A DNA stretch of 64,000 nt from a virus, in IMG/VR virus record IMGVR_UViG_3300027969_000043, positions 64,001 to 128,000 of that record; one strand, given 5' to 3'. This document shows positions 1-55,318 of the stretch, one piece after another. The translations under genes were made by a program, and so were the position numbers. The stretch's first letter is position 1. The number at the start of each line of letters is the position of its first letter. The notes under the pieces are model-generated. The model ran no database searches and was not told the DNA's origin. It saw only the letters and a program-made list of their open reading frames with translations.

Positions 1-2174
1 ACACCAGTATAATATGTTGTAGAACCTGTTGTTATACCTGTAAAAAACCCAGGGTCGGTTAAACCTGTTTGAGCAACAATTTGCGAATACGAAACGCCCC
101 TATATCCTGTACTAGTTGCGCTTAATATTTCCCCTAATGACGATGCGGTTCCAGCACTTGATGTGCTCAAACTAGGTAATGCAAACAAACTAGCATTATA
201 AAAATTACTAAGTAAAGAATCGTTTATTGTTATTGATAGAACAGTACCACCAGTAGTAGCAGCTGAATAATACATCAAATAACTTGATAATGTTGTATAA
301 TTTTGGGTGCTTGTAATTAATGTTGTATTAGCACTAAATGTTGGAATATTAAAACTATTAGCCACTATCTCACTACGTGTTGCTGGTGTAGCAGTACTAT
401 TTGCCTCAGTATATACAGCGCTTTTAATATTAAGAGCGGAACCAGCTGTACCCCAAAAACTCCTTATTGGGTTTGGCGGTCCAACAGTACTAGTTTCATT
501 TATAACCACCTGCCCACCAAAAGCGGCAACTGGTGCGGAAAATGTAAGAACACCGTTACTATTTAAAAACTTAGAATTTGGTCTATCAAGATGCGACATT
601 ACCAAATCGTTGTTATATGGTTTATTTCTAAATACAAACATTTTGGAAGGGTCTGGATATTGATTACTAAGACCACCACCACCTGCATTATATGACGTTT
701 CAAAATATAGTCCTAATGGGGCAGCTGGAGAGTAAATAACAGCCCTAGAAGTACCAAAATTTATCGCTGGGAATGAAGAAGGTAAAAATAAAGTACCCGT
801 ACCCGAAGCACCTTGTGAATATGTAAAATCAGCGTTAGTTGTAATTTGATTAGAACTAAAAAATGGTATCCTACCAGTTGTAGCAGAAAATGCACGTAAT
901 ACACCATTTGTATCAACACTCGTAAGATACGTATCAGCTGATATACCCGCTAATCCTTGAAATCTAACTGGGTTTGTTGTTGCGGTTACATGTAGTGTAT
1001 TGGTTCCCGATAAAACACCAATACCAACAGTTCCACCAGTACTAACCGTTAAAGCATTTGGTATTGTCGAAGAACTAAAGTTTAATGTTTTTTGATTTAA
1101 ATCAACAACCCTATTACCGTTTAAAGCACCGTCACTAGTATATAAGGTATTAATGCTTGAAGCGACTGTTGAAGTAAGTGAAGCAACAGAAATTGAATGT
1201 ACCACACCAACATTGTCAATTGTTAAAACATTTGAATCAGAAGAACCTCCTATACCCTCAATTCTAATTGGGTCAGTAGCTGCCGAAATATGTAATTTTG
1301 TACTAGCCGATAAAACACCAATACCAACTGTACCACCAGTACTAATTGTTAAACTGTTTGGCGCTGTTGATGAACTAAAATTTAATGTTTTTTGGTTTAA
1401 GTCAACACGCCTATCTGATTTTATTGAATCATCTTTACCATACAGTGTTGTTATACCTGTAATACTTAAATTTTTACTTGGGTCAGTAAAATCTAGCGCA
1501 ATTGAAGCACCTGTTTGATTATATGTTGCAGCTGTTGTATATATGTTTGTATAACCTGCAGTAAATCCAGTAACAATAAATACACCACGAGAACTAATTG
1601 GCCTCCAATTAGCTGTATCCCCACTAGGTGGTGTTGGGTTTGCACTAACATTTGCGATTGAGTAGTAATCTAAATTATTAACAGTATATGTAACAACAGT
1701 ACTAGCTGTGTATGCAGAAGATGCGTTCCAGTTACCAGCATAAAATAAACCAGTACGGGTATTTGTTGTGCTTGATGAAAACGTAACAATACCGTTTAAA
1801 GAATTATAAGTACCACCTGTAACGGTCACGTCTGAAGCCAACGAGCTAAGATTTTTTGTTATCCCACCACCAAATGTGTTTAATGTCAAATCATAACTCC
1901 CAAGGTCCCAAGTTAATCCTGTAACCATTTGTATTTGACTCCATGTTGTGTTACCACTATTTAATACGTAATAATCATTAAATGCGCCATTTTTAACACC
2001 AACAATCATTCCCGCTCTTCTTCTTTCAGAAGGTATTTCATTCCTAGCAGTAATATCATTAACATTTCTTAAACTATCAACACCATAAACTGGGTCAATA
2101 ACCGCATAAGTATCTTGGGTATCTGTTGGTGATATAAATCCAGTTATGCGTACTCCGCCATCTATAGTTGCCAT
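1..2174 (-). CDS. Tail fibre/virion structural protein, >720 aa, runs off the window start (not in ORF track)
   Basis: Manual translation from ATG at 2174 (MATIDGGVRITGFISPTDTQDTYAVIDP...) is open to position 1. S/T/G-rich, with an internal ~100-aa duplication and modules shared with the 1996-aa fibre. Confidence 0.75.
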   Translation of the reverse strand, partial: MATIDGGVRITGFISPTDTQDTYAVIDPVYGVDSLRNVNDITARNEIPSERRRAGMIVGVKNGAFNDYYVLNSGNTTWSQIQMVTGLTWDLGSYDLTLNTFGGGITKNLSSLASDVTVTGGTYNSLNGIVTFSSSTTNTRTGLFYAGNWNASSAYTASTVVTYTVNNLDYYSIANVSANPTPPSGDTANWRPISSRGVFIVTGFTAGYTNIYTTAATYNQTGASIALDFTDPSKNLSITGITTLYGKDDSIKSDRRVDLNQKTLNFSSSTAPNSLTISTGGTVGIGVLSASTKLHISAATDPIRIEGIGGSSDSNVLTIDNVGVVHSISVASLTSTVASSINTLYTSDGALNGNRVVDLNQKTLNFSSSTIPNALTVSTGGTVGIGVLSGTNTLHVTATTNPVRFQGLAGISADTYLTSVDTNGVLRAFSATTGRIPFFSSNQITTNADFTYSQGASGTGTLFLPSSFPAINFGTSRAVIYSPAAPLGLYFETSYNAGGGGLSNQYPDPSKMFVFRNKPYNNDLVMSHLDRPNSKFLNSNGVLTFSAPVAAFGGQVVINETSTVGPPNPIRSFWGTAGSALNIKSAVYTEANSTATPATRSEIVANSFNIPTFSANTTLITSTQNYTTLSSYLMYYSAATTGGTVLSITINDSLLSNFYNASLFALPSLSTSSAGTASSLGEILSATSTGYRGVSYSQIVAQTGLTDPGFFTGITTGSTTYYTG
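960..1410 (-). repeat. Intragenic direct duplication, 300-nt period (VDLNQKTLNFSSST..N.LT.STGGTVGIGVLS....LH..A.T.P.R..G)
   Basis: ataccaacagttccaccagtactaaccgtt at 1021 vs ataccaactgtaccaccagtactaattgtt at 1321; tttaatgttttttgatttaa at 1081 vs tttaatgttttttggtttaa at 1381. Confidence 0.85.
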
Positions 2175-3567: not shown

Positions 3568-6500
3568 CTATTGTTTTACAAATAATATTGATTGATTATA
3601 TGTAATAGCAACATAACTACCTGAAGTTAAGTTTCTCACACTAACCCAATCACCACCAGACGAATAACTAGAAGTTTTAACTGTAACCCCTAATATATTT
3701 TTAATCACCATAGTTCCAGACGTGTTAGAATTTATATATATTGACCTTCTATCTGAATTATAAAAAAACCTTCTAATATTAACTGAAGAACAAGACCTAC
3801 TTAAACTATCCGTTGACGGAAGACCAATGCAACCTATAGGTTCACTAGTATATGTTCTAGATTGTAAACCATTAATACATGTACTCCATTGACTATAAGT
3901 AAATACACATGGTGTTGGAGAAACACATGCTCTTTGAACACTATCCGCAGGAGGAACCCCTGTACAACCTACTGGTGTGGATGTATATGTTCTTGTTTGA
4001 GTTCCATTAGCACATGTTGTCCAAATTCCATATGTAAAATTACAAGGTACTATTGGTGATGTACAACTTCTTTGAATACTATCAGTTGGCGGAAATCCCA
4101 CACATCCAGTTGGAGATGTTACATATGGTCTTGTTTGAACCCCATTATTACACGTTGTCCAAGTTCCGTATGTAAAAATACAAGGTGTTGGAGCAACTGA
4201 ATTATACTGATATATTCCTATTGAAGGTGTTGCACCAACAATATTTCCTTCAAAATCTCTATTAAGACCTACATTTGTACCATTATTTATGGCATAAGAC
4301 GTATCACTAGCAATGTGCATATCCCAATTTTGTGGGTATATGCTAGAACTATCAACAATTAATTTACCATTGATAATTCTTTCGCCTATCGCTAATGTGG
4401 TATTAGGCCCTAAAGACGTAGGTGTAAATGAACCAACCGCTCCCTGATAACCACTAACTAAGTGATAGATATTATTTCTATAAAACGCTTTAGGTCTTTC
4501 AGATTGTGTGTATTTAGCATAAAACCCATTATTAATCCAAAATACATTATTACGAATATCAAATACAGTATCTGCTGCTTGAACACTATGGTCACCTGAC
4601 GCTATCGGCCTCCAAGCGTTTTGGAAGTTTTCTGATGATGGATAACGAGTTGATTTATTAATAGGGTATGGTGGCCAATAAATGAATCCTGTGTTTGCAT
4701 ATGTTTGACCATCACCCATAGCATCACCACCAGCATTGTTACCACTAAAACGTGACATAGAACCTTCTACAAAAAAGTTATTCCAAAAATGTAAATTTTT
4801 AACCTGTGTTGCATATGTTCCTGTAGTATTAACATACGCAATGTTGCTACAATTGATAAATTTATTATAGCAAATTGTATCGTCATCTGGGCCTTGTATA
4901 CCGCCTGGTAAATTTGTGCCAAACTCCATACCACCGCTACAATCAATGAATGTATTATAGGCAATGAATGAACTATCAAAATTATTAATAGTTTCAACAG
5001 CTCCACCTAATAAACCTGAACTAGATGAATTAAAAGGATTGGCATAAGCCCACGAACCTGTAATTCTATTATTTGTTATTCTATATTTACTTCCCGATAA
5101 TAACATTGGGTCAGCACCTATATCAGCTTGACTTGCAGTATCTGTTATCCAACCTGTAGATTTAAAATTACTAAATGTATTATTTTCAATCTTAAAATCT
5201 CTAACAAAGGCAACAATACCATATGCTGTATTACTAAAGTTACAGTTTTTTACCGTGATGTTACTACATTTACAACCATCACTTCCACTACAGTATCCAC
5301 TATCCCCAAACCAAAGTCCTAGCGTTGTAAAAGCACCCGAACGTTTGTCATTGACAGGGAATCTTGTATCATTAAACTGTATACCGTCTATCACAATGTA
5401 ACTTACATTAGCAAACGCCAATACACCTTTTTCGTTTGACCTAACTGAACTTGGATAAGGATATAGTAAGTTTGGGCTTTCTAAATTAATATCACCATAA
5501 TATGTGAATACAATTGGATTAGTAGCAGTACCTGAAGGGAAGCTTAATCCTTCATATCCACCACCATACCATTTTACAGAAGCTACTGTGCTGAACTCGG
5601 TACCATTAGCAAATATTTCACCTCTTTTAAAAGCAAATGTATCACCAGCAGTTGCAATACTACTTAAAGTATTTAATTTTGCTAGTGTTTTCCAAGGGGT
5701 CAATGGATTCTGTGCTTGTGTAACACTATACGAATCATTACCAATTGAACTAAAATAAAATTTTCTACCTCTTGTTGTTGGGGATGCACATGTTCTTGTT
5801 AAACTGTCTGCTGGAGGAACTCCCGTACAATTAGTTGGGGAACTCGTAAACGGTCTTGTTTGTATTCCATTACTACATGTTGTCCAAGTTCCGTATGTGA
5901 AAGTGCACGGTACTATCGGTGTTGTACAACTTCTTTGAATACTATCAGTTGGTGGAACCCCAATACAACCTGTCGGTGTAGGTGTATATGGTCTTGTTTG
6001 TGTTCCGTTAGAACATGTTGTCCAACTACCATATGTAAAAGTACATGGTGTTGGAGTAACCGAACCACCGTATTGGTATATACCCATCGAAGGTATAGCA
6101 CCAACACTATTACCAACAAAATCGCTTGTAAGACCTACATTAACTCCAGAATTTATGGCTGGTGATGTACTTGTTAATGTATAATCCCAATTTAAAGGGT
6201 TAGAGTTTGTTGTATTTGTCCAAATAATTCCAGATGTGGAAATCTCAGTACCGTCTAATGTGAAATTAGTAACACTACCATTAGATAATTTATATATGTT
6301 GTTAGTGTGACTTAAGTTAGCACCATTTAACTGTCCATTTCTTGTTAATGATAAACCATTAGATACCTGAATTATATTATTTTTAAGGATTATAATCCCA
6401 GCTGTAGCCTCTGATGTTGACATAGAAAACATAATACCGCTACTACCCCCTGGATTTGTATTAGGAACGGTTTGTAACATTACATTATTATAAAATTGTA

Positions 6501-7407
6501 AGTTTCTTACCGCAGTTTTATACTGTCCACTATTACTAATATAAACTACTGTGTTGTTATTAATAATCTTGTTGTAATATATTTTATTATTTTGAATTAA
6601 ATTATTAGCAACACCATCATTATTGCTACCAAATTCAAAAATACCATTACAGTCATAAAATGTATTGTAAGCAATCACGTTATTTTCAATAACAGAACCC
6701 TCTTCAAAAAATTCTACACCACCACCATCAAATGTATAATCATAACTAGCGGCATAACAATCGTGAAAGTAGTTGTTAGTAACAATATTATTTGAACTAG
6801 ATAGTTGAACAGGCACCCCACCATAATCGTCATCTGGATTAACAGATGTTGGTGTGTTTCTAATCATCCTTAAATTTCCAATATCACAAGAATCCACGGT
6901 GTTATTATTATTGCCTGGTGGAAAATACACGCCATAACCAGTTCTGTCCATCGTACACTTCCTAATAACTATTCCTGTACATCCTTGATACGTAGCAAAT
7001 ACATTTTGTATCTTAGCTTGAATATATCTATCAGTAGCTGATATTGTTGTATCGCTAATCTTCCAACCATAGAAAGTTAGGTTTGTACAACCATTCAATG
7101 TAATTAAAACACTTACTGTAGAGTTTGTCCCCCAGAATAATGGGTCGGCTCCTGTTCCATACACACCAAAATAAATGTTAGATTTATTTGATAATGTTAA
7201 TGTTCCCGAGAATTTAGAATCTTTTGCAAACAATACAGAATCACCATTAGCAACATTGCTTTGTACTTTAGATAATGTTTGCCAAGGCGTTAATGGATTT
7301 TGCGCTTGTGTTGTTGTGTAACTATCACTACCCGCTGAACTAACGTAAAATTTTCTAGCGCTAGCAAATAATGGAATAAATAAAAGAATTGTTAAAAACT
7401 TTTTCAT
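3568..7407 (-). CDS. Secreted tandem right-handed beta-helix (pectate-lyase-like) protein with 5 TSP1-like repeats and a T9SS-type C-terminal sorting domain
   Basis: Sec signal MKKFLTILLFIPLFASA. Two homologous domains each begin RKFY.SS.G.DSY...QAQNPLTPW.TL.K and end G..P.[MI]GIYQY. CxFTYxxWxTCxNGxQxR repeats. C-terminus IYIN...MVIKNILGVTVK...VSVRNLTSGSYV...FVKQ. Confidence 0.8.
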   Translation of the reverse strand: MKKFLTILLFIPLFASARKFYVSSAGSDSYTTTQAQNPLTPWQTLSKVQSNVANGDSVLFAKDSKFSGTLTLSNKSNIYFGVYGTGADPLFWGTNSTVSVLITLNGCTNLTFYGWKISDTTISATDRYIQAKIQNVFATYQGCTGIVIRKCTMDRTGYGVYFPPGNNNNTVDSCDIGNLRMIRNTPTSVNPDDDYGGVPVQLSSSNNIVTNNYFHDCYAASYDYTFDGGGVEFFEEGSVIENNVIAYNTFYDCNGIFEFGSNNDGVANNLIQNNKIYYNKIINNNTVVYISNSGQYKTAVRNLQFYNNVMLQTVPNTNPGGSSGIMFSMSTSEATAGIIILKNNIIQVSNGLSLTRNGQLNGANLSHTNNIYKLSNGSVTNFTLDGTEISTSGIIWTNTTNSNPLNWDYTLTSTSPAINSGVNVGLTSDFVGNSVGAIPSMGIYQYGGSVTPTPCTFTYGSWTTCSNGTQTRPYTPTPTGCIGVPPTDSIQRSCTTPIVPCTFTYGTWTTCSNGIQTRPFTSSPTNCTGVPPADSLTRTCASPTTRGRKFYFSSIGNDSYSVTQAQNPLTPWKTLAKLNTLSSIATAGDTFAFKRGEIFANGTEFSTVASVKWYGGGYEGLSFPSGTATNPIVFTYYGDINLESPNLLYPYPSSVRSNEKGVLAFANVSYIVIDGIQFNDTRFPVNDKRSGAFTTLGLWFGDSGYCSGSDGCKCSNITVKNCNFSNTAYGIVAFVRDFKIENNTFSNFKSTGWITDTASQADIGADPMLLSGSKYRITNNRITGSWAYANPFNSSSSGLLGGAVETINNFDSSFIAYNTFIDCSGGMEFGTNLPGGIQGPDDDTICYNKFINCSNIAYVNTTGTYATQVKNLHFWNNFFVEGSMSRFSGNNAGGDAMGDGQTYANTGFIYWPPYPINKSTRYPSSENFQNAWRPIASGDHSVQAADTVFDIRNNVFWINNGFYAKYTQSERPKAFYRNNIYHLVSGYQGAVGSFTPTSLGPNTTLAIGERIINGKLIVDSSSIYPQNWDMHIASDTSYAINNGTNVGLNRDFEGNIVGATPSIGIYQYNSVAPTPCIFTYGTWTTCNNGVQTRPYVTSPTGCVGFPPTDSIQRSCTSPIVPCNFTYGIWTTCANGTQTRTYTSTPVGCTGVPPADSVQRACVSPTPCVFTYSQWSTCINGLQSRTYTSEPIGCIGLPSTDSLSRSCSSVNIRRFFYNSDRRSIYINSNTSGTMVIKNILGVTVKTSSYSSGGDWVSVRNLTSGSYVAITYNQSILFVKQ
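3790..4182 (-). repeat. Three tandem TSP1-like 4-Cys repeats (~45 aa)
   Basis: CIFTYGTWTTCNNGVQTR...C...RSC; CNFTYGIWTTCANGTQTR...; CVFTYSQWSTCINGLQSR... Confidence 0.85.
5788..6045 (-). repeat. Two tandem TSP1-like 4-Cys repeats between the beta-helix domains
   Basis: CTFTYGSWTTCSNGTQTR...RSC and CTFTYGTWTTCSNGIQTR...RTC. Confidence 0.85.
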
Positions 7408-7485
7408 TTTAAATTTTTTTTAAAAAATTGTTATATTATAAGTACAATAATATAATAATTAATATATTAATTATATATTAATTAT

Positions 7486-10400
7486 TTATACCGATATATC
7501 ACCCGATAAATACCAAACGTCCCCAGACTTCTTTATTAATGTTGCAAAACTATACTGGCTTCTCAACTTTAATGCACCTCCAGAGCTTAATATAGTTACA
7601 CCAGTACCACCACTGATAGATGTTTGACCAGTACCATTTTGAACAATACCAATTTGAACACCAGTGCTAAAATTGGTTGTAGCACTAGGTGGTATGGATA
7701 CAACATTAGCCGTAGAACTAGTCATTTCAATAATGGTATTATTATTAGCCGCTGAAAGCTGTAAAGTATATGCCGTTCCAATAATAGCACCAAATGACAC
7801 ATTACTACTTGCTGATGTAATTCCTGTGATGGTATTTCCATTTACAGAACCTGTACCTGAAAGAGTGATTGTACCTGTTGCAGAATTATATGTACCACCA
7901 GTTACAGCATTTATTGTATATGTAAGTGCTGTACTACCACCTGAAGTAACACTCAACACATTACCTGACAATGTTGTTGCGCTTATATATGTTGGTAAAT
8001 TAAAATAGGTTGTTGCTGATATTGTTGTTGCTGTTAACCCAGATACAATTGTATTACCAGTTACTGTTAATGTATTTGCTGTCAGGCCAGCTAATCTAGC
8101 ATTACCAGTCACGTTTAACGTATTTGCAGTTAATCCACTAGTAAATATTGTTGCACCATTTACCGTTCCACCAGAAAATGTAGATGAACTAGCAGTAAAC
8201 GGGTCAACTTGAACAATTTTTGTAACCCCACTCAATCTAATTCTTAAATCATTATTTTGAATCCATATATCACCATCGTTTGGTGATGTCGGCGCTGTTG
8301 AACCAGTAATGAGCCTTAATGAAGCTTGAGTTGCAGTTGCGGCTGGAAGTGTTAATCTAGCAGTAGGTGTTTCTACACCAATACCAATCATACCTGTCGC
8401 TGTTGCACCTGTTGATGGATTACCAGTTGTTGTTGCATATGTATTTGAACCAAAAATAACACCACCAATATTAATTCGATTTGATGGTGTTCCAGACAAA
8501 CCTATATTTGTACCTACGATAATATTATTTGAACCTAAGTTACCACGCCAACCCGTTTGATATCCTAACAATATTGATTGGCTACCACCAGTCATAAAAT
8601 AGCCAGCTCTATAACCAATAGCCACTAAATCCGATGGTCCGCCAACAATTGACCTACCTGATTCAGAACCCATGATTATTGATGTTGTAACACCTGTCGA
8701 GCTAATACCAGCACTTTGACCAACAATTATTGAAGTTGATGACCCCGAAGCGTCCAGCCCAGCATTATTACCAACAAAAACAGAATTTAACGCAGTTGTT
8801 GCACCATTACCAGCAGAACTACCAATAAAAATAACGTTTGAAGTTACAAAACCACTAATTGATGAATCAGCACCAGCAGCATTACCAATATAAATTGAGG
8901 ATGAAGGTGTATAATTTCTAGCACCTGCCGACAATCCAATACCGACAGAGCTACTTAACGTAACACCATTAATACCCGCATTAGAACCAATGTACACTGA
9001 CGCAGAAGCACCATTTGTATTTAAACCAGCACTATTACCAATAAAAACAGAATTTGTTGAAGTACCTGACAAATCTTTGCCAGCTTGAAAACCAATAACT
9101 ACTGTATTTGCAAATGTGCTAGCTGTATCAGCAGTATATTGTCTAGATTGAAAACCAGCTTGATTACCAATAATAACCGCACTAGTTGCTTGACCCTTAT
9201 TAGTTTTATACGCTGATGTCCCAATAACAACACTACTCGATAACCTACTAGATGCACGAGCGGCTTCAGTACCAATAACGACCGTATTTTGCGAATTACC
9301 CGAAACAAATGCCCCCGCTAAATTACCTATAAAGGTTGAATTAGCAATTGTACCTGCATTTGTCGAACCAGTTGCTGGAAAATAAGGATTTGTCGCAGCA
9401 TTTGTTCCAATTGCAATAACATTAGCCGCATTATTTGCTGTTGCCGCACTCAAAAGACCGTTAAAACCTATAACAACACCATATGTTAAACCAGTAGACC
9501 TAGAACCAGCATCAGTACCAACTAAAACACTACCATATGACAAATAATTATTAAGACCAGCCCTGTAACCAATATAGTCAGAATAATCATTACCCGTAGC
9601 ACCACTACCAGCTTGATAACCAATGAAATTAAAAAATTTAGTATTAGTTGTACCACTACCAGCTTCATAGCCAATTATATTACCATATTGTATATTACTA
9701 GATAATTGACCAGCTGAAGCACCAATAAGTGTTGTACCTGTTATAGCTGACGCTTGATAACCAGCTTGGTTACCAATAAAATTTAAATCACTATTTACGG
9801 TTACATCTGAAAAAAGAACACCCAAACCCGCATTGTAACCAATAAAATTTGAGAAAGTTATACCAGTTGATGATTCACCAGCACTAGTACCAATAAAATT
9901 TGAAGCTGATGTGTTTCTAGCACCATCACCAGCAGCAGAACCAATAAAAGATGACCCCCCTATATTCCTAGCACCATTACCAGCACCATACCCCATAAAA
10001 TTTGAATAACTTGACTCACTTGCACCACCACCAGCATCACTACCAAATAAATTTGAATTAGTAATATCCGTTGCCTCCTTACCAGCATCCTTACCAATAA
10101 AATTTGAATTGGTAATACCAGAAGCAGAACTCCCAGCATTTGAACCAATAAAATTTGAAGAGGCTAAATCAGAACCGTTCGATGCTGCATTGTAACCAAT
10201 AGCATTTATTTTTAATATATTACCAAACCCATCAGTATTATTAATACCATAACCAGCAGTATCACCAATAAAATTTGAACTAGTAACACCCGTTGTAAGT
10301 CTACCAGCATTATAACCAATGAAATTTGAACGGCTTGTCGCACTTGCCCCATCACCAACATTACTACCAATAAAATTTGAATATATTGAATCGTTAGCGC

Positions 10401-13400
10401 TAATTCCAGCAGAATTACCAATAAAATTTGAATATGTTACACCAGTTGCATTTTGACCAGCATCTGAACCAATAAAATTAGAGTCATCTGAGTTAATTGC
10501 TTGATACCCAGCACCACCACCAATAAAGTTTGAATTACTAGAACTAGACGCATAAATACCAGCATTTTGACCGATAAAATTTGAACCAGTAACACCAGTT
10601 AGTTCAGAACCAGCATAATTGCCAATAAAATTTGAGCTTTGAACATTACTTGCCAAATTACCAGCTCCGATTACAGCAAAAAATGAATTAGTTATACCAC
10701 TCGAAGAAGCACCAGCTTCGGTACCAATAAAACTAGATTGATATATATCAAATGTGTTAGTACCAGCGTTATCACCAAAAAAATCTGCCAATTGGGAATC
10801 AATATTATTTGCCCCAGCATTTTTACCAATAAAGTTCGAGCGAGTAGTGCCCGTACTATTACTACCAGCACCTTGCCCAACAACAAACATATCGTTACCC
10901 AAAGCCTCAGCACCAGAACCGATGGCTATTGAATCGCTAGCTGAAACAACTGGTGGTGTTGTTGGATTTGTTGATGGTTCAGCGTAGTATTTTAAAGAAA
11001 CCGTTGACGCACTGCCTGTTAATCCAGAAACTGGATAAGCATGTAGAACACCATCAGTATCAATACTAACAACAAATGTATCAGCTGTTGTTGCTGTTAA
11101 TCCTTGAAATCTAACAGGGTTTGTTGCTGCTGATATGTGTAATGTGTTGGTTGCAGCTGTTGTACCAAAACCAGTGTTTCCTGATGCATCAACATATAAT
11201 CTAATTGTACCAGCACCGTTAGCGATAACGATGCTATTGGTTAAACCACTTGTAAGTTGTGGTATGTTATTACCAATAACAAGGTTATTGCTTCCTGTTA
11301 TAATACCCTTACCAGCATAATTACCAATATAAATATTATTATCACCACTTGTTTGTCCAGAGCCAGCTAGTAAACCAATTAAAATAGTATTGTTTAAATT
11401 AGCAATACCTGTATAACCACTATTTAATACCCCCGTAGCCCACCCAATACTAGTATTACCTGAACCCGTTTGATTATGATACAATGCTCCTTGACCAACA
11501 CCCGTGTTATTAATACCTGTTGTATTATTATATAACGCGGCGTAACCAATACCTGTATTATAGTTACCTGTTGTGTTAAATCTAAGAGCAACGCTACCAG
11601 TACTAGTATTTCCAGTACCAATAGTACTAGTAGCTAATGACGCATAACCAATTGCTGTGTTTGAGTTACCTGTAGTGTTTACAAGTAGAGCACTAGACCC
11701 AACAGCTGTATTAAAACTACTACCAGTTGTGTCTCTTAATGTACCATTACCAACACCTGTATTACTACCACCAACAGCAAGTTTACTCAACGAACCGTAA
11801 CCAATCGCAAAATTTAAATTACCTGTTGTATTTGCAGCTAAAGCACCAGAGCCAATTGCTAAATTTCTAATTCCCGTAGTATTTAATGATAAACTACCCG
11901 CACCAATAGCAGTATTTTCATAACCAGTAGTATTGTTAGTTAACGCACTAGTACCAATTGCGTTATTAGTATATCCAATTGTATTTTTTGCTAAAGCTTG
12001 ATAACCGATTGCAGTATTGCTATAACCACTTGTAACCCCTGATAATGAACCAGCACCAATACCCACATTACCACCAAAATTAACACCAGAATCAATTGTT
12101 GTAAAATTACCAGCACTATTACCTAAAAATAAGTTATTGGTACCATATGAATGAATAAATCTATTTGAATTCTGATTAATAACACCAGAACTTGATGATG
12201 TGGTACTAGGTATACCAACAGTTGTTGCCGATAAATCACCGTTTACCGTAAACCCACTAACTGTATTAAAGTTTGTTGTAAATGTTCGACCACTAGAATC
12301 ATTTATTGTAAATGTATTTGCTGAAGATATATATCCAAAACTAGTAATAACCGTATCAGTATATCCACTTGTAAATCCTGAAACATCAAACACACCACGA
12401 CCACTCAATGCCAACCAATTAAGTGTATCACCTGTTGGTGGTGTAGCACTAGGCCCAGCATTAGCAGATATTACAAAATAATCTTTATTATTACCACTAT
12501 ATGTAACAACCGTATCTGCTGTATATGCAGACACCGCCCTCCAATTACCAGCATAATACAAACCAGTACGGCTATTGCTAACATTTGAATAAAACGTAAC
12601 AACACCACTGTTTTTATTATAGGTACCACCAGTTACAGTCATATCTGTAGCCAATATACTTAGGCTTACTGTTAATGGTGAGTTATTGTTTTGATTAATG
12701 GTTAAATCATAATCACCCTGACTAAATGTAAAACCAGTCACATAAACATCTTGTGGTAACCCATTATATTGTGTTGCCGATATCGTTGTTGCTGAAAAAG
12801 TATTTGCTGTTAAACCACTAGTAAATATTGTCGCACCACCAACAGAACCACCAGTAAAAGTATCTACTGGTAAATTAAGATATGTTGTTGCTGATATTGT
12901 ATTAGCAGATAATCCACCAGTGAATAAAGTAGCCCCATTAACGGTACCACCAGTAAAGTTACCAACTGGCAGATTAAGGTATGTTGTTGCCGATATTGTA
13001 TTACCACTAAGTCCGTTGGTGAATAAAGTAGCCCCGTTAACGGTACCACCAGTAAAATTACCAACTGGTAAGTTAAGATATGTTGTGGCGCTAATTGTAT
13101 TTGCGGTTAAACCACTAGTAAATATTGTCGCACCACCAACTGAACCACCAGTAAAGTTACCAACTGGTAGGTTAAGATATGTTGTTGCTGATATTGTATT
13201 ACCACTAAGTCCGTTGGTAAATAAAGTAGCTCCGCTAACAGTACCACCATCAAAAGGGTCAATGGTTTTTAATACTAAATCATTATCTGCAATACCATTA
13301 TTATACCAGTATTCAATCACACCAGAACCAGAAAAAATACCAACGGTCAACCCCTTTGTTCTTTGTAATGATAGTATATTAGTATTAGCGTCTGTAACAC

Positions 13401-13476
13401 CACTCCATGGACCGTAACGGTTGTCCAATACTTTTGGTGAGTTACTATTTATATTGTCACTAAGATTTATTCCCAT
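7486..13476 (-). CDS. Giant tail fibre/adhesin (1996 aa) with YadA-head/Hep_Hag-like 14-aa repeats
   Basis: Long arrays of N.AIG..AL..NTTG and SNFIG..AG.... repeats, 33-aa N-terminal repeats, and a common phage-fibre C-terminal domain ending ...ATLIKKSGDVWYLSGDISV. Confidence 0.8.
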   Translation of the reverse strand: MGINLSDNINSNSPKVLDNRYGPWSGVTDANTNILSLQRTKGLTVGIFSGSGVIEYWYNNGIADNDLVLKTIDPFDGGTVSGATLFTNGLSGNTISATTYLNLPVGNFTGGSVGGATIFTSGLTANTISATTYLNLPVGNFTGGTVNGATLFTNGLSGNTISATTYLNLPVGNFTGGTVNGATLFTGGLSANTISATTYLNLPVDTFTGGSVGGATIFTSGLTANTFSATTISATQYNGLPQDVYVTGFTFSQGDYDLTINQNNNSPLTVSLSILATDMTVTGGTYNKNSGVVTFYSNVSNSRTGLYYAGNWRAVSAYTADTVVTYSGNNKDYFVISANAGPSATPPTGDTLNWLALSGRGVFDVSGFTSGYTDTVITSFGYISSANTFTINDSSGRTFTTNFNTVSGFTVNGDLSATTVGIPSTTSSSSGVINQNSNRFIHSYGTNNLFLGNSAGNFTTIDSGVNFGGNVGIGAGSLSGVTSGYSNTAIGYQALAKNTIGYTNNAIGTSALTNNTTGYENTAIGAGSLSLNTTGIRNLAIGSGALAANTTGNLNFAIGYGSLSKLAVGGSNTGVGNGTLRDTTGSSFNTAVGSSALLVNTTGNSNTAIGYASLATSTIGTGNTSTGSVALRFNTTGNYNTGIGYAALYNNTTGINNTGVGQGALYHNQTGSGNTSIGWATGVLNSGYTGIANLNNTILIGLLAGSGQTSGDNNIYIGNYAGKGIITGSNNLVIGNNIPQLTSGLTNSIVIANGAGTIRLYVDASGNTGFGTTAATNTLHISAATNPVRFQGLTATTADTFVVSIDTDGVLHAYPVSGLTGSASTVSLKYYAEPSTNPTTPPVVSASDSIAIGSGAEALGNDMFVVGQGAGSNSTGTTRSNFIGKNAGANNIDSQLADFFGDNAGTNTFDIYQSSFIGTEAGASSSGITNSFFAVIGAGNLASNVQSSNFIGNYAGSELTGVTGSNFIGQNAGIYASSSSNSNFIGGGAGYQAINSDDSNFIGSDAGQNATGVTYSNFIGNSAGISANDSIYSNFIGSNVGDGASATSRSNFIGYNAGRLTTGVTSSNFIGDTAGYGINNTDGFGNILKINAIGYNAASNGSDLASSNFIGSNAGSSASGITNSNFIGKDAGKEATDITNSNLFGSDAGGGASESSYSNFMGYGAGNGARNIGGSSFIGSAAGDGARNTSASNFIGTSAGESSTGITFSNFIGYNAGLGVLFSDVTVNSDLNFIGNQAGYQASAITGTTLIGASAGQLSSNIQYGNIIGYEAGSGTTNTKFFNFIGYQAGSGATGNDYSDYIGYRAGLNNYLSYGSVLVGTDAGSRSTGLTYGVVIGFNGLLSAATANNAANVIAIGTNAATNPYFPATGSTNAGTIANSTFIGNLAGAFVSGNSQNTVVIGTEAARASSRLSSSVVIGTSAYKTNKGQATSAVIIGNQAGFQSRQYTADTASTFANTVVIGFQAGKDLSGTSTNSVFIGNSAGLNTNGASASVYIGSNAGINGVTLSSSVGIGLSAGARNYTPSSSIYIGNAAGADSSISGFVTSNVIFIGSSAGNGATTALNSVFVGNNAGLDASGSSTSIIVGQSAGISSTGVTTSIIMGSESGRSIVGGPSDLVAIGYRAGYFMTGGSQSILLGYQTGWRGNLGSNNIIVGTNIGLSGTPSNRINIGGVIFGSNTYATTTGNPSTGATATGMIGIGVETPTARLTLPAATATQASLRLITGSTAPTSPNDGDIWIQNNDLRIRLSGVTKIVQVDPFTASSSTFSGGTVNGATIFTSGLTANTLNVTGNARLAGLTANTLTVTGNTIVSGLTATTISATTYFNLPTYISATTLSGNVLSVTSGGSTALTYTINAVTGGTYNSATGTITLSGTGSVNGNTITGITSASSNVSFGAIIGTAYTLQLSAANNNTIIEMTSSTANVVSIPPSATTNFSTGVQIGIVQNGTGQTSISGGTGVTILSSGGALKLRSQYSFATLIKKSGDVWYLSGDISV
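12780..13254 (-). repeat. Five tandem 99-nt (33-aa) repeats FTGG.V.GAT.FT.GL..NTISATTYLNLPVGN
   Basis: Directly visible in the translation; the fifth copy is partial. Confidence 0.9.
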
Positions 13477-13481
13477 ATTAT

Positions 13482-15248
13482 TTAATTATTTCTAAATTCT
13501 AATGTTTGTTGCACAGTAGGATAAACACTCCAATGCATTTTATAGTTAATTCCAGACCAATAAGATTCTGGACTTTTAACGGGTTGTAAAACGGCTGTTG
13601 TAATAAAACTATTATCAATATTACCAAAATTAAAACCAGTCTCCCACCATAATGTTTTTGTTGTATATCCAGAATAATAAGCAACCCAAATAAATTCACC
13701 AGTATTTAGTGTATTATATGGTATTGATATCGTACCAGATGCTGATGATAAAACTTTATTTGCTGTACCAGCAGATATAGTATCCGCAATATCCTGAGCC
13801 GTTGGCAATGTATTTGATTTACCCCAGAAATATGGGTATATACCTGTTATAGTAAATGTTGTTGAAGAAAAATTACTACTAGCTGCTTGTGGTGCGTTAA
13901 CAGAACGCACAGCTGGTGTTCTTGTATCAACAACTCCTTTGTTATTATTTTTAGAAGACCCAGAGGCATAATTACCGTCACCGTTATAAATTGTTGTTGA
14001 TGAATTACCCACCACAGGTGCTGGTATAACATACGATTCGGAATACGACGGTGTCATTGTGTACCTAAAATTAGGGTTATTAGGATTCGGATAGGTAAAT
14101 TGATTTGGAACAGCTGTTGTTGAAGATACCGCAAACGTCGTATCGGTAAATAATGAAGAACCATCCCTTAATACCCTTAGCTGTGAAAAAGCACCTGCGT
14201 CATTTTTAACACCAAACACACTAATAGTTGGTGAATATGTTACACCAATCTCTAATGTTTGTGTTGATGGACCAGTCATTGTTATTGTTGGTATTGTGTA
14301 TGTTGGATTAGCAACAGGAAATAAAATATCATCAAACAACTGAACCAATGTTCTACCTGTTAATAATGAAACAGTTGTTCCAGCTGATAACCCACCAATA
14401 CCCCTATCCATTGCTAACCCTCCATCTAAAGCAGTATTATAAAGAGAATATAACGAATTACCGTTCCTACCTAAACCAGTATTTGCTGATACCGTAATCC
14501 CAACGTTTGAAAGATTTGAACCATCACCATAATATGTTGATGCACTAACAGTCGTAGCTGATATGGTACCCATATTAGCAGTTGTTGCTGAAATCAGTCC
14601 AGAACTAATAGATACAGCATTTAACGTATTAAATGTTGCAGCACTATTAACGGTTAAATTACCACTAATAGTTAAACCTGTCATACTATTTACCCTCTGC
14701 GTAAATGTTGCACCGCTAGAATCAAAAATACTAAATGTATTATTTTGATATGTAAAACCAGTAACACGTATATCCGTATACCCACTTGCAAATCCAACAA
14801 CAGGAAATGTACCACCACTATTATTAATAAACGTAACAACACCGTTATTTTTGTCATAAGTACCACCAGTTACCCTCATATCTGTAGCTAGTATCGATAA
14901 AGATTCCGTTGTTGACCAAGTGTCGTTTCTACTTATGGTTAAGTTATAGTTAGCAACATCAAAAGTTAAACCAGTCACATAAACATCGTCAGATGGTTTA
15001 AAAAATCCAGTCACGTCAAACGTTCCACCACTAATATTAGTAAAAGTGATAATACCTGTAGTATCATTATAAGTACCGCCAGTTATTACAGCTTCAACAT
15101 TCAATCCATCGGTTATAAAATTAGCTAAAGTACTTAATGCAACTTTTTTTGTTTGGTTACCATTAACAATAGGCATTACATCATTATTGGTTAATGATGT
15201 GGCAAATGTTAATTGACTAATTTTTTTATTTTCGTTTTGTGCTGGCAT
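13482..15248 (-). CDS. Virion structural/fibre protein
   Basis: N-terminal KKISQL...DVMPIV..QTKKV fibre-type motif, VTGGTY/VTGFTY modules shared with neighbours, C-terminal domain paralogous to 2201-3460. Confidence 0.65.
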   Translation of the reverse strand: MPAQNENKKISQLTFATSLTNNDVMPIVNGNQTKKVALSTLANFITDGLNVEAVITGGTYNDTTGIITFTNISGGTFDVTGFFKPSDDVYVTGLTFDVANYNLTISRNDTWSTTESLSILATDMRVTGGTYDKNNGVVTFINNSGGTFPVVGFASGYTDIRVTGFTYQNNTFSIFDSSGATFTQRVNSMTGLTISGNLTVNSAATFNTLNAVSISSGLISATTANMGTISATTVSASTYYGDGSNLSNVGITVSANTGLGRNGNSLYSLYNTALDGGLAMDRGIGGLSAGTTVSLLTGRTLVQLFDDILFPVANPTYTIPTITMTGPSTQTLEIGVTYSPTISVFGVKNDAGAFSQLRVLRDGSSLFTDTTFAVSSTTAVPNQFTYPNPNNPNFRYTMTPSYSESYVIPAPVVGNSSTTIYNGDGNYASGSSKNNNKGVVDTRTPAVRSVNAPQAASSNFSSTTFTITGIYPYFWGKSNTLPTAQDIADTISAGTANKVLSSASGTISIPYNTLNTGEFIWVAYYSGYTTKTLWWETGFNFGNIDNSFITTAVLQPVKSPESYWSGINYKMHWSVYPTVQQTLEFRNN

Positions 15249-54727: not shown

Positions 54728-55318
54728 TTATTTTACCAAAAATTTAGAATAGTCCATAGTCGATGGTTTATCATTTTTAAAATAATACTTTTCAACTTTA
54801 TTACCGTACTTGATTGTTTTATAATAACCATCTGGAATTGTCGCACCTGTACTTAACTTAATTGATGATTTTGAAAAAACACATTGTATCTCAACATTAA
54901 CAATTTTATTTTCATTTGCCAATAATCTTTCACGCGCTTCTAATAATCGCCATGTTGTTCTATTTAAATCTTGATTTTGAAGTGAACAGTTTAAATAACT
55001 AAATGTTTTATACAGCATCTCTTTAGTACAATTAAAATCAGCTGCTGGTGCCATATGACCCTTATCATATATATTATTCACATAATCCATGTGGTCAGAT
55101 GTTTTAACACTATCTATGGTATAAAAATCCATACCCTTTCTAGACGCGTCGCCATTAGGACACTTTACAGTATATTTAACCCACACAGGTTGTTCCAAAA
55201 CTTCAGAATATATTACCTCGTAGATATCGGTTTTAATATGAACCTTATCTCTTAATTTTTGTGAAAATATACTTAACGGTATAATACCAATTAGTATAAT
55301 TAATAACATTTTTTTCAT
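54728..55318 (-). CDS. Secreted DNA/RNA non-specific endonuclease (NucA/EndoG family)
   Basis: Signal peptide MKKMLLIILIGIIPLSIFS; YDKGHMAPAADF...TFSYLN..LQ...LNR..W..LE. Confidence 0.88.
   Translation of the reverse strand: MKKMLLIILIGIIPLSIFSQKLRDKVHIKTDIYEVIYSEVLEQPVWVKYTVKCPNGDASRKGMDFYTIDSVKTSDHMDYVNNIYDKGHMAPAADFNCTKEMLYKTFSYLNCSLQNQDLNRTTWRLLEARERLLANENKIVNVEIQCVFSKSSIKLSTGATIPDGYYKTIKYGNKVEKYYFKNDKPSTMDYSKFLVK

Follow-up and report, generated by a model that had tools for sequence, protein, structure and literature searches.

The ORF at positions 3568-7407 (minus strand) of a stretch of viral DNA raises the question of whether a phage gene can specify a protein that the infected cell exports to its own surface rather than one that is built into the virion. 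The stretch, called the window here, comprises 64,000 nucleotides (bases 64,001-128,000) of the 168,871-bp IMG/VR virus record IMGVR_UViG_3300027969_000043, for which completeness is estimated at 48%. A preliminary description of the window, made from the letters alone, had read the 1279-amino-acid product as a phage-encoded cargo for the Bacteroidota type IX secretion system (T9SS); the coordinates of the ORF proved exact. Homology searches and structural models lead us to regard the gene, with modest confidence, as a phage-borne derivative of a Chitinophagaceae T9SS cargo family whose product would be exported by way of Sec and the T9SS and would act on glycans. The infected cell probably exports this protein rather than assembling it into particles.

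Candidate export signals at both ends of the protein

The N-terminus consists of MKK, the hydrophobic stretch FLTILLFIPLF and ASA, followed by RKFYVSS, with a predicted signal peptidase I cut after ASA (Ala17). Signal peptides were called throughout with our own heuristic, based on a hydrophobic core and the -3/-1 rule. By this measure, a hydrophobic core is present in 122 of the 124 family members with a presequence, position -1 is Ala, Ser or Gly in 123 of them, and position -3 is small or neutral. Since the leader letters vary across the family while the n/h/c pattern is kept, the pattern appears to be maintained by function. The cleavable Sec signal of the preliminary description is thereby borne out as a signal peptidase I-type leader, MKKFLTILLFIPLFASA followed by RK, of a kind found family-wide. 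Predicted signal peptides were also noted on a DNA/RNA non-specific endonuclease of the same phage (window positions 54728-55318, minus strand; Endonuclease_NS, E 1.6e-23) and on an NlpC/P60 peptidase (G000:C1:139408-139986, minus strand, L106; E 6e-26), so that the phage, if these calls hold, exports several proteins.

The tail occupies the extreme C-terminus of the protein, up to the stop codon, behind the predicted N-terminal signal peptide. The motifs by which it had originally been assigned to the type-A C-terminal domains (CTDs) of T9SS cargo are all present (VIKNILGVTV, LTSGSYVA and ILFVKQ), and homology to such domains emerges at the level of the family. PF18962 matches 33 of 40 relatives, counted at E<=1, with a best E of 1.8e-6, and several of the relatives have precomputed PF18962 matches. 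Alignment of the variant tails with the canonical CTDs of cellular homologues by hhalign gave a probability of 73.6% (E 2.9e-5), and when 1.8 billion proteins were searched exhaustively with the profile of the variant, canonical CTDs with the PNP motif came up at E 1e-4 to 9e-4. When the same profile was run against 301 Chitinophagaceae genomes, the six best-scoring matches, all of which were inspected, were canonical C-terminal YPNP...K tails, one of them ending in LQFVKQ, like the ILFVKQ of the phage protein; against PDB sequences the profile returned nothing meaningful. Lys1278 is the counterpart of the near-invariant C-terminal Lys of type-A CTDs, and most relatives have Arg or Lys at this position. 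According to Lauber et al. (PMC10994853), the motifs of CTDs do no more than specify the fold, the binding pocket is plastic, and near-invariance is found only at the C-terminal Lys. Taken together, the sequence comparisons suggest that the tail descends from the type-A CTD as a divergent branch; by curated criteria it is no member, and the label rests on family-level evidence.

Structural modeling agrees with this assignment, though the fold in question is a generic one. AlphaFold2 (AF2) predicts a 7-stranded beta-sandwich with a predicted local distance difference test (pLDDT) value of 91-96, which superimposes on the translocon-bound FspA CTD (8glj_D) with Z 8.0 and 2.5 A over 70 amino acids, and on the CTDs of NucA, RemA, RemZ, RgpB and mirolase with Z 7.1-7.3 (NucA 7.3, RgpB 7.2, mirolase 7.1). 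Foldseek returned nothing for the tail model at E<=0.001, and T9SS CTDs surface only at E 0.05-0.1. The predicted complex of the tail with PorV, for which a Chitinophagaceae protein served as stand-in, scored 0.81, compared with 0.01 for the best of 3 controls. Of 80 solved complexes, 58 reach this mark, as do 2 of 110 mismatched pairs. Partner pLDDT is at or above 84, and at least 92% of contacts recur between runs. Because PorV-CTD complexes have already been solved and the PorV used is a stand-in, passing the mark may stem from likeness to a CTD rather than from binding.

The tail is also the best-conserved part of the protein, with 77% identity between orthologues compared with 40-56% elsewhere. 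A ratio of nonsynonymous to synonymous substitution rates (dN/dS) of about 0.27, calculated against the orthologue in L002, an assembly of a 320-kb relative, indicates that it is under purifying selection. Three unrelated kinds of passenger end in the variant tail, namely beta-helix proteins, an M43 peptidase and a PKD-like protein, and in this respect the tail behaves like a portable tag. An 80-kb phage-like contig that encodes a GH19 endolysin, a ClpP-like protease and a Prim-Pol carries two variant-tail genes (L109:8001-9623 and L109:13504-15495, also in L110), one with a PKD_6 passenger and the other with a beta-helix.

Possible Sec export without the T9SS

The same protein might instead be exported by Sec and be no T9SS substrate at all, a lesser but real possibility under which the sandwich would be an ordinary Ig-like or carbohydrate-binding module, and the protein would act in the periplasm or at the outer membrane, or as a soluble depolymerase freed at lysis. 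Several observations weigh against T9SS export. The tail itself scores below both curated models, with 13.6-14.7 bits for PF18962 (gathering cut-off 27) and 15 bits for TIGR04183 (cut-off 23), so that the type-A assignment stands on motif pattern and family-level homology and fails as a call by Por_Secre_tail or TIGR04183; a six-frame TIGR04183 search of the whole phage record found nothing. The N-terminal PNP motif is absent, with FFYN/FYYN in its place. The sandwich fold recurs in DUF3244 (Z 9.4) and in GH9 Ig domains (Z 8.2-8.6), which match equally well or better than the CTDs. The tail domain is internal and followed by a SprB repeat in three homologues (P0040, P0174 and P0184), and peptidase C1 proteins (P0181, P0183, P0196 and P0218) contain a related domain in an internal position, so the domain can act simply as an Ig module. 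None of about 380 cellular genomes that were examined had the variant tail, which turned up only on phage-like contigs; hence no host protein is known to be exported with it. A last adverse point, the position of the gene within a tail-fibre cluster, favors a different alternative and is considered with the gene context.

The Sec-only explanation also draws on those family members that have a signal peptide and a SprB-repeat end but no CTD, among them a second protein of the same phage; for some members, periplasmic export alone seems to be enough. It accounts poorly for a tail that is the most conserved segment between orthologues and under constraint, that keeps its extreme C-terminal position on three unrelated passengers together with the terminal Lys or Arg, that specifically retrieves canonical CTDs when used as a profile, and that is predicted to dock on PorV far above the controls. 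The proposal that a glycan-active protein is displayed or released through the T9SS retains its in silico fit in the signal peptide, the CTD homology and the predicted docking, and is weakened by the model cut-offs, the lost PNP motif and the fibre-cluster position. Elsewhere in the phage record no further CTD-like domain was found; no type-B CTD was found either, which is weak evidence because the same search was silent in control genomes too.

Two beta-helices and five four-Cys repeats

Between the two ends lie two paralogous helices, as the preliminary description had it: helix 1 (residues 18-452) and helix 2 (545-1073) align over their full length with 29% identity (E 1e-39), and helix 2 opens with the same RKFYFSS...TQAQNPLTPW stretch as helix 1. 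For helix 1, AF2 predicts a right-handed parallel beta-helix with pLDDT 93.3 and a predicted template modeling score of 0.93. Its best Foldseek matches share this fold and are the GH136 lacto-N-biosidases (LnbX, TnX and BsaX; E 1.9e-10), the PL9 pectate lyase Pel9A, RbmB, PL6 lyases, the alginate lyase PsAly and phage tailspikes, the last represented by Dettilon gp208, HK620 and a K64-1 depolymerase. For helix 2, the NCBIfam para_beta_helix repeat was sub-threshold at 16.2 bits.

Searching PDB sequences with a profile built from 63 helices of the helix 1 type (H1) gave GH136 at E 1.5e-20 and PsAly at E 2.2e-6. The GH136 match, however, spans the first ~165 positions only, and both alignments stop short of the published catalytic sites; GH136 enzymes, moreover, depend on a helical domain or partner (PMC8106489). 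Among the acidic residues, D39, D102, D177, D206, E215, E241, E371 and D412 (domain numbering) are invariant or nearly so, and two Glu, in GGVE (GGxVE) and FEFG (xEFG), are common to both helices. The label "pectate-lyase-like" is accordingly right as a description of the modeled fold; the chemistry may be that of a lyase or of a hydrolase, the nearest sequence relatives being the GH136 hydrolases.

Relatives combine the helices of the H1 type and of the helix 2 type (H2) freely, as H1, H2, H1+H2, H1+H1, H2+H1 or three H1-like copies, and such shuffling reads as typical of surface-glycan arms races. The second family member of the same phage is an 878-amino-acid protein encoded ~4 kb before the first base of the window (G000:C1:57400-60036, minus strand, L105). 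It consists of a signal peptide, an N-domain of ~120 amino acids, an H2-type helix with 37% identity to helix 2, and a SprB repeat ending ...SSVVVCP, and has no CTD-like tail. Many family members (P0014-P0044, P0062, P0090 and L105) likewise end in a SprB repeat that has a Cys among its final three residues, as in ...KLSSNCN, ...SSVVVCP and ...ARRRRNC, and other members end in ...SRLKFxN. The Cys-containing SprB-type ends could be another sorting or anchoring signal.

The spacers described earlier as Cys-rich turned out to be five copies of a 46-amino-acid unit with four Cys each, starting at residues 453, 499, 1074, 1120 and 1165 in a 2 + 3 arrangement, with twenty Cys in total and the consensus PCxFTYGxWxTCxNGxQTRxYTxxPxGCxGxPPxDSxxRxC. 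AF2 models the last repeat with pLDDT of about 80-84. Likeness to the thrombospondin type-1 repeat (TSR)-like domains of pleiotrophin and midkine is weak (PDB E 0.87; Atlas score 0.77), and the Pfam model PTN_MK_C matches 7 of 44 repeats with a best E of 0.038. By sequence the unit may be a bacterial or phage TSR-like (thrombospondin type-1/pleiotrophin) module, which we offer as a lead and not as a finding. Modules of the disulfide type suit an extracytoplasmic protein.

Cellular homologues and the likely host

The 80 best genomic loci of helix homologues are nearly all from Chitinophagaceae, Ferruginibacter or Sediminibacterium. More than 50 of the 80 fetched loci carry a canonical CTD, and PorV is encoded in three such genomes (432-445 bits; curated cut-off 250). 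The phage, a large freshwater one, probably infects a member of the Bacteroidota.

The closest cellular counterparts are Ferruginibacter proteins annotated as "T9SS type A sorting domain-containing protein" (P0091, P0092 and P0105), which likewise have a signal peptide and an H1-type helix (33-55% identity) and carry a C-terminal sandwich in the same position as in the phage protein. Unlike the phage protein, they end in a canonical YPNP...KxIKL tail, include SprB and BiPBP_C domains, lack the four-Cys repeats and contain a single helix or a triple H1.

Gene context and the tailspike alternative

In the phage under study and its 320-kb relatives the gene lies within a tail-fibre cluster. PHROG tail-fibre or tail-spike matches were obtained for 4 of the 7 neighbors scanned, on both sides and on the same strand, and the position is syntenic in L002 and L003, two further independent assemblies of the 320-kb relative. 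This placement, together with a fold common to Dettilon gp208, HK620 and the K64-1 depolymerase, invites the explanation that the product is a virion depolymerase or tailspike of the tail-fibre module, whose hydrophobic N-terminus and sandwich either survive from a host gene that was captured or have been put to a new use in attachment. L002 also encodes, immediately upstream of a gene for a signal peptide, an H2-type helix and a CTD, a 510-amino-acid beta-helix paralogue without signal peptide or CTD (L002:8400-9932, plus strand; 32% identity to helix 2). In this paralogue the same module may exist in a virion or cytoplasmic form, and the protein has the look expected of such a domesticated form.

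For the 1279-amino-acid protein itself we nevertheless consider a tailspike improbable. No N-terminal virion adaptor or particle-binding domain was found, and as the first helix begins at residue 18 there is no room for one. The signal-peptide pattern kept in 122 of 124 relatives has no parallel in the cluster, where none of eight fibre-cluster neighbors has a signal peptide, and twenty Cys in small repeats would suit assembly in the cytoplasm badly. A terminator-like hairpin parts the gene from the next fibre gene. Homologues occur outside the tail-fibre module in L001, L004 and L088-L092; in six other phage contigs the surrounding genes are non-structural or lysis genes, and in L004 and five IMG/VR contigs the homologues are flanked by small or replication-type genes. 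Among the contexts examined, placement in the fibre cluster is confined to the jumbo lineage.

In L001, a phage contig of ~61 kb, the homologue belongs to eight consecutive signal-peptide genes beside a holin (4456-13193), comprising NlpC/P60, an unknown 330-amino-acid protein, a PorE-like PD40+OmpA protein, PKD_6, a T9SS type-B CTD protein (TIGR04131, 48 bits; cut-off 35), PKD, the beta-helix and YkuD. This run looks like a phage "secretome island".

The neighboring giant fibre proteins, encoded at window positions 3-2174, 7486-13476 and 13482-15248 (minus strand), contain shuffled blocks shared with one another and with the fibres of L002, an example being ...LSILATDMTVTGGTYN..., and the downstream fibre gene extends to at least 1582 amino acids in Logan contig L107, where it includes a PTL_trimer domain.

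Contiguity of the assembly and features of the gene

Mis-assembly or mis-binning could in principle have put a bacterial gene into a phage contig, all the more as homologues are common in metagenome-assembled genomes of Chitinophagaceae. This explanation is effectively refuted. The 1279-amino-acid protein is found identical on at least five contigs, one of them from an independent Logan assembly in which the genes upstream and downstream are also the same, and the order 603 / 593 / 2007 / [helix genes] / collagen-like fibre is retained in L002 and L003. Because the same protein and neighbors recur on at least five contigs and synteny holds in two further assemblies, a chimeric assembly is excluded, and the contiguity on which the preliminary description had made its reading depend is confirmed. 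The GC content of the ORF is that of the adjoining fibre genes, and the failure to find the variant tail in the cellular genomes searched is a further point against a bacterial origin of the contig segment.

The features of the gene are collected in Table 1. The hairpin has a minimum free energy of -23.5 kcal/mol (z -5.09), and 0 of 200 shuffles fold as well. Promoter searches give no ground for a promoter claim: the T4-type late promoter motif TATAAATA is not enriched (22 observed, 19.4 expected), nor is the Bacteroidota motif TTTG-N18-22-TAnnTTTG (5 observed, 5.8 expected), and a sigma-70 scan gave nothing informative. A whole-protein Pfam scan of the product found no match and PHROGs gave nothing useful. 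Among GenBank phages there was no DNA or protein match to the gene family, and no cultured phage is known as a carrier.

Table 1. Features of the beta-helix gene and its 3' flank, in window coordinates.
Feature	Residues	Position	Strand	Basis
Predicted signal peptide, MKKFLTILLFIPLFASA	1-17	7357..7407	-	Sequence and family-wide n/h/c pattern (heuristic)
Beta-helix 1 (H1 type), directly after the signal peptide	18-452	6052..7356	-	AF2, Foldseek, profile
Cys repeats 1-2, 46 amino acids and 4 Cys each	453-544	5776..6051	-	Sequence repeats
Beta-helix 2 (H2 type), paralogue of helix 1	545-1073	4189..5775	-	Alignment to helix 1
Cys repeats 3-5	1074-1208	3784..4188	-	Sequence repeats; AF2
Putative divergent T9SS type-A-like CTD, end ILFVKQ	1209-1279	3571..3783	-	Family-level homology, model
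Terminator-like long hairpin then U-run, just past the stop codon		3478..3560	-	Folding compared with shuffles

A possible route of export and action

If the protein is a T9SS cargo, as we favor, its precursor would cross the inner membrane by Sec and be cut by signal peptidase I after Ala17, and both beta-helices and the five four-Cys modules would fold and oxidise in the periplasm. The host PorV/SprA translocon would then accept the C-terminal 7-stranded sandwich as it does a type-A CTD, and the protein would be released, or linked to the cell surface once the CTD is removed. Outside the cell, the two different glycanase helices could bind or cut polysaccharide of the host surface or matrix, such as capsule, exopolysaccharide or O-antigen. 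The phage would probably benefit through destruction of the receptor or capsule on the infected cell, which would limit superinfection and keep progeny from being lost on debris, and through loosening of the matrix for spread.

Comparison with known systems

That phages encode T9SS cargo is an idea already published in 2019-2020, and the present gene adds no new principle. In "Cryophage", Bellas et al. (2020; PMC7468147) described three genes for T9SS type-A cargo and proposed that the host system is hijacked, and de Jonge et al. (2019; PMC6949934) described ORFs with T9SS sorting domains in crAss-BACON phages; both suggested possible roles in superinfection or competition, and all of this work is computational. 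We found no experimental test of a phage-encoded T9SS cargo in the literature. As here, the genes are those of Bacteroidota phages, encode glycan-active proteins with a T9SS type-A domain and are hypervariable between related phages. The domains of Cryophage and crAss-BACON were called by the standard model, whereas the present tail is below the curated cut-offs and is seen only on phage-like contigs. The passenger differs as well, being a tandem duplicate of an unnamed beta-helix family with four-Cys repeats, encoded in a tail-fibre cluster.

With tailspikes and capsule depolymerases (HK620, Dettilon gp208 and K64-1 S2-4), the protein shares the beta-helix fold and the position in a tail-fibre cluster, and its family shares the modular swapping of helices between related phages. 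It is unlike them in its signal peptide, its Cys repeats and its CTD-like tail, and in having no N-terminal adaptor. What is new is a subclass of divergent tails, found only on phage-like contigs, and an unnamed, widespread cargo family with two helices and four-Cys repeats, together with the connection of this family to the tail-fibre locus. The advance lies in a new, widespread and testable family rather than in a new principle.

Meaning for phages of freshwater Bacteroidota

A broader scenario, which we put forward only tentatively and think doubtful, is that freshwater Chitinophagaceae phages have evolved a T9SS tail subclass of their own, with FYYN for PNP, portable on glycanases, an M43 peptidase and PKD-like cargo, and that in the tail-fibre locus helix modules shuttle between secreted forms and forms without signal peptide or tail. 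If this were true, the shuttling of helices would be a visible route from host-secreted glycanases to phage tailspikes, or the reverse. Curated CTD models, for their part, appear to under-count phage-borne cargo.

Should the tail work as a sorting signal, these phages would be borrowing a Bacteroidota-specific secretion system to change the infected cell's surface ahead of lysis, with two glycan-active domains per chain, and a tail without the classic PNP would be a natural test of T9SS substrate specificity. A working tail would also bear on the origin of tailspike depolymerases and on how abundant freshwater Bacteroidota phages handle capsules and superinfection.

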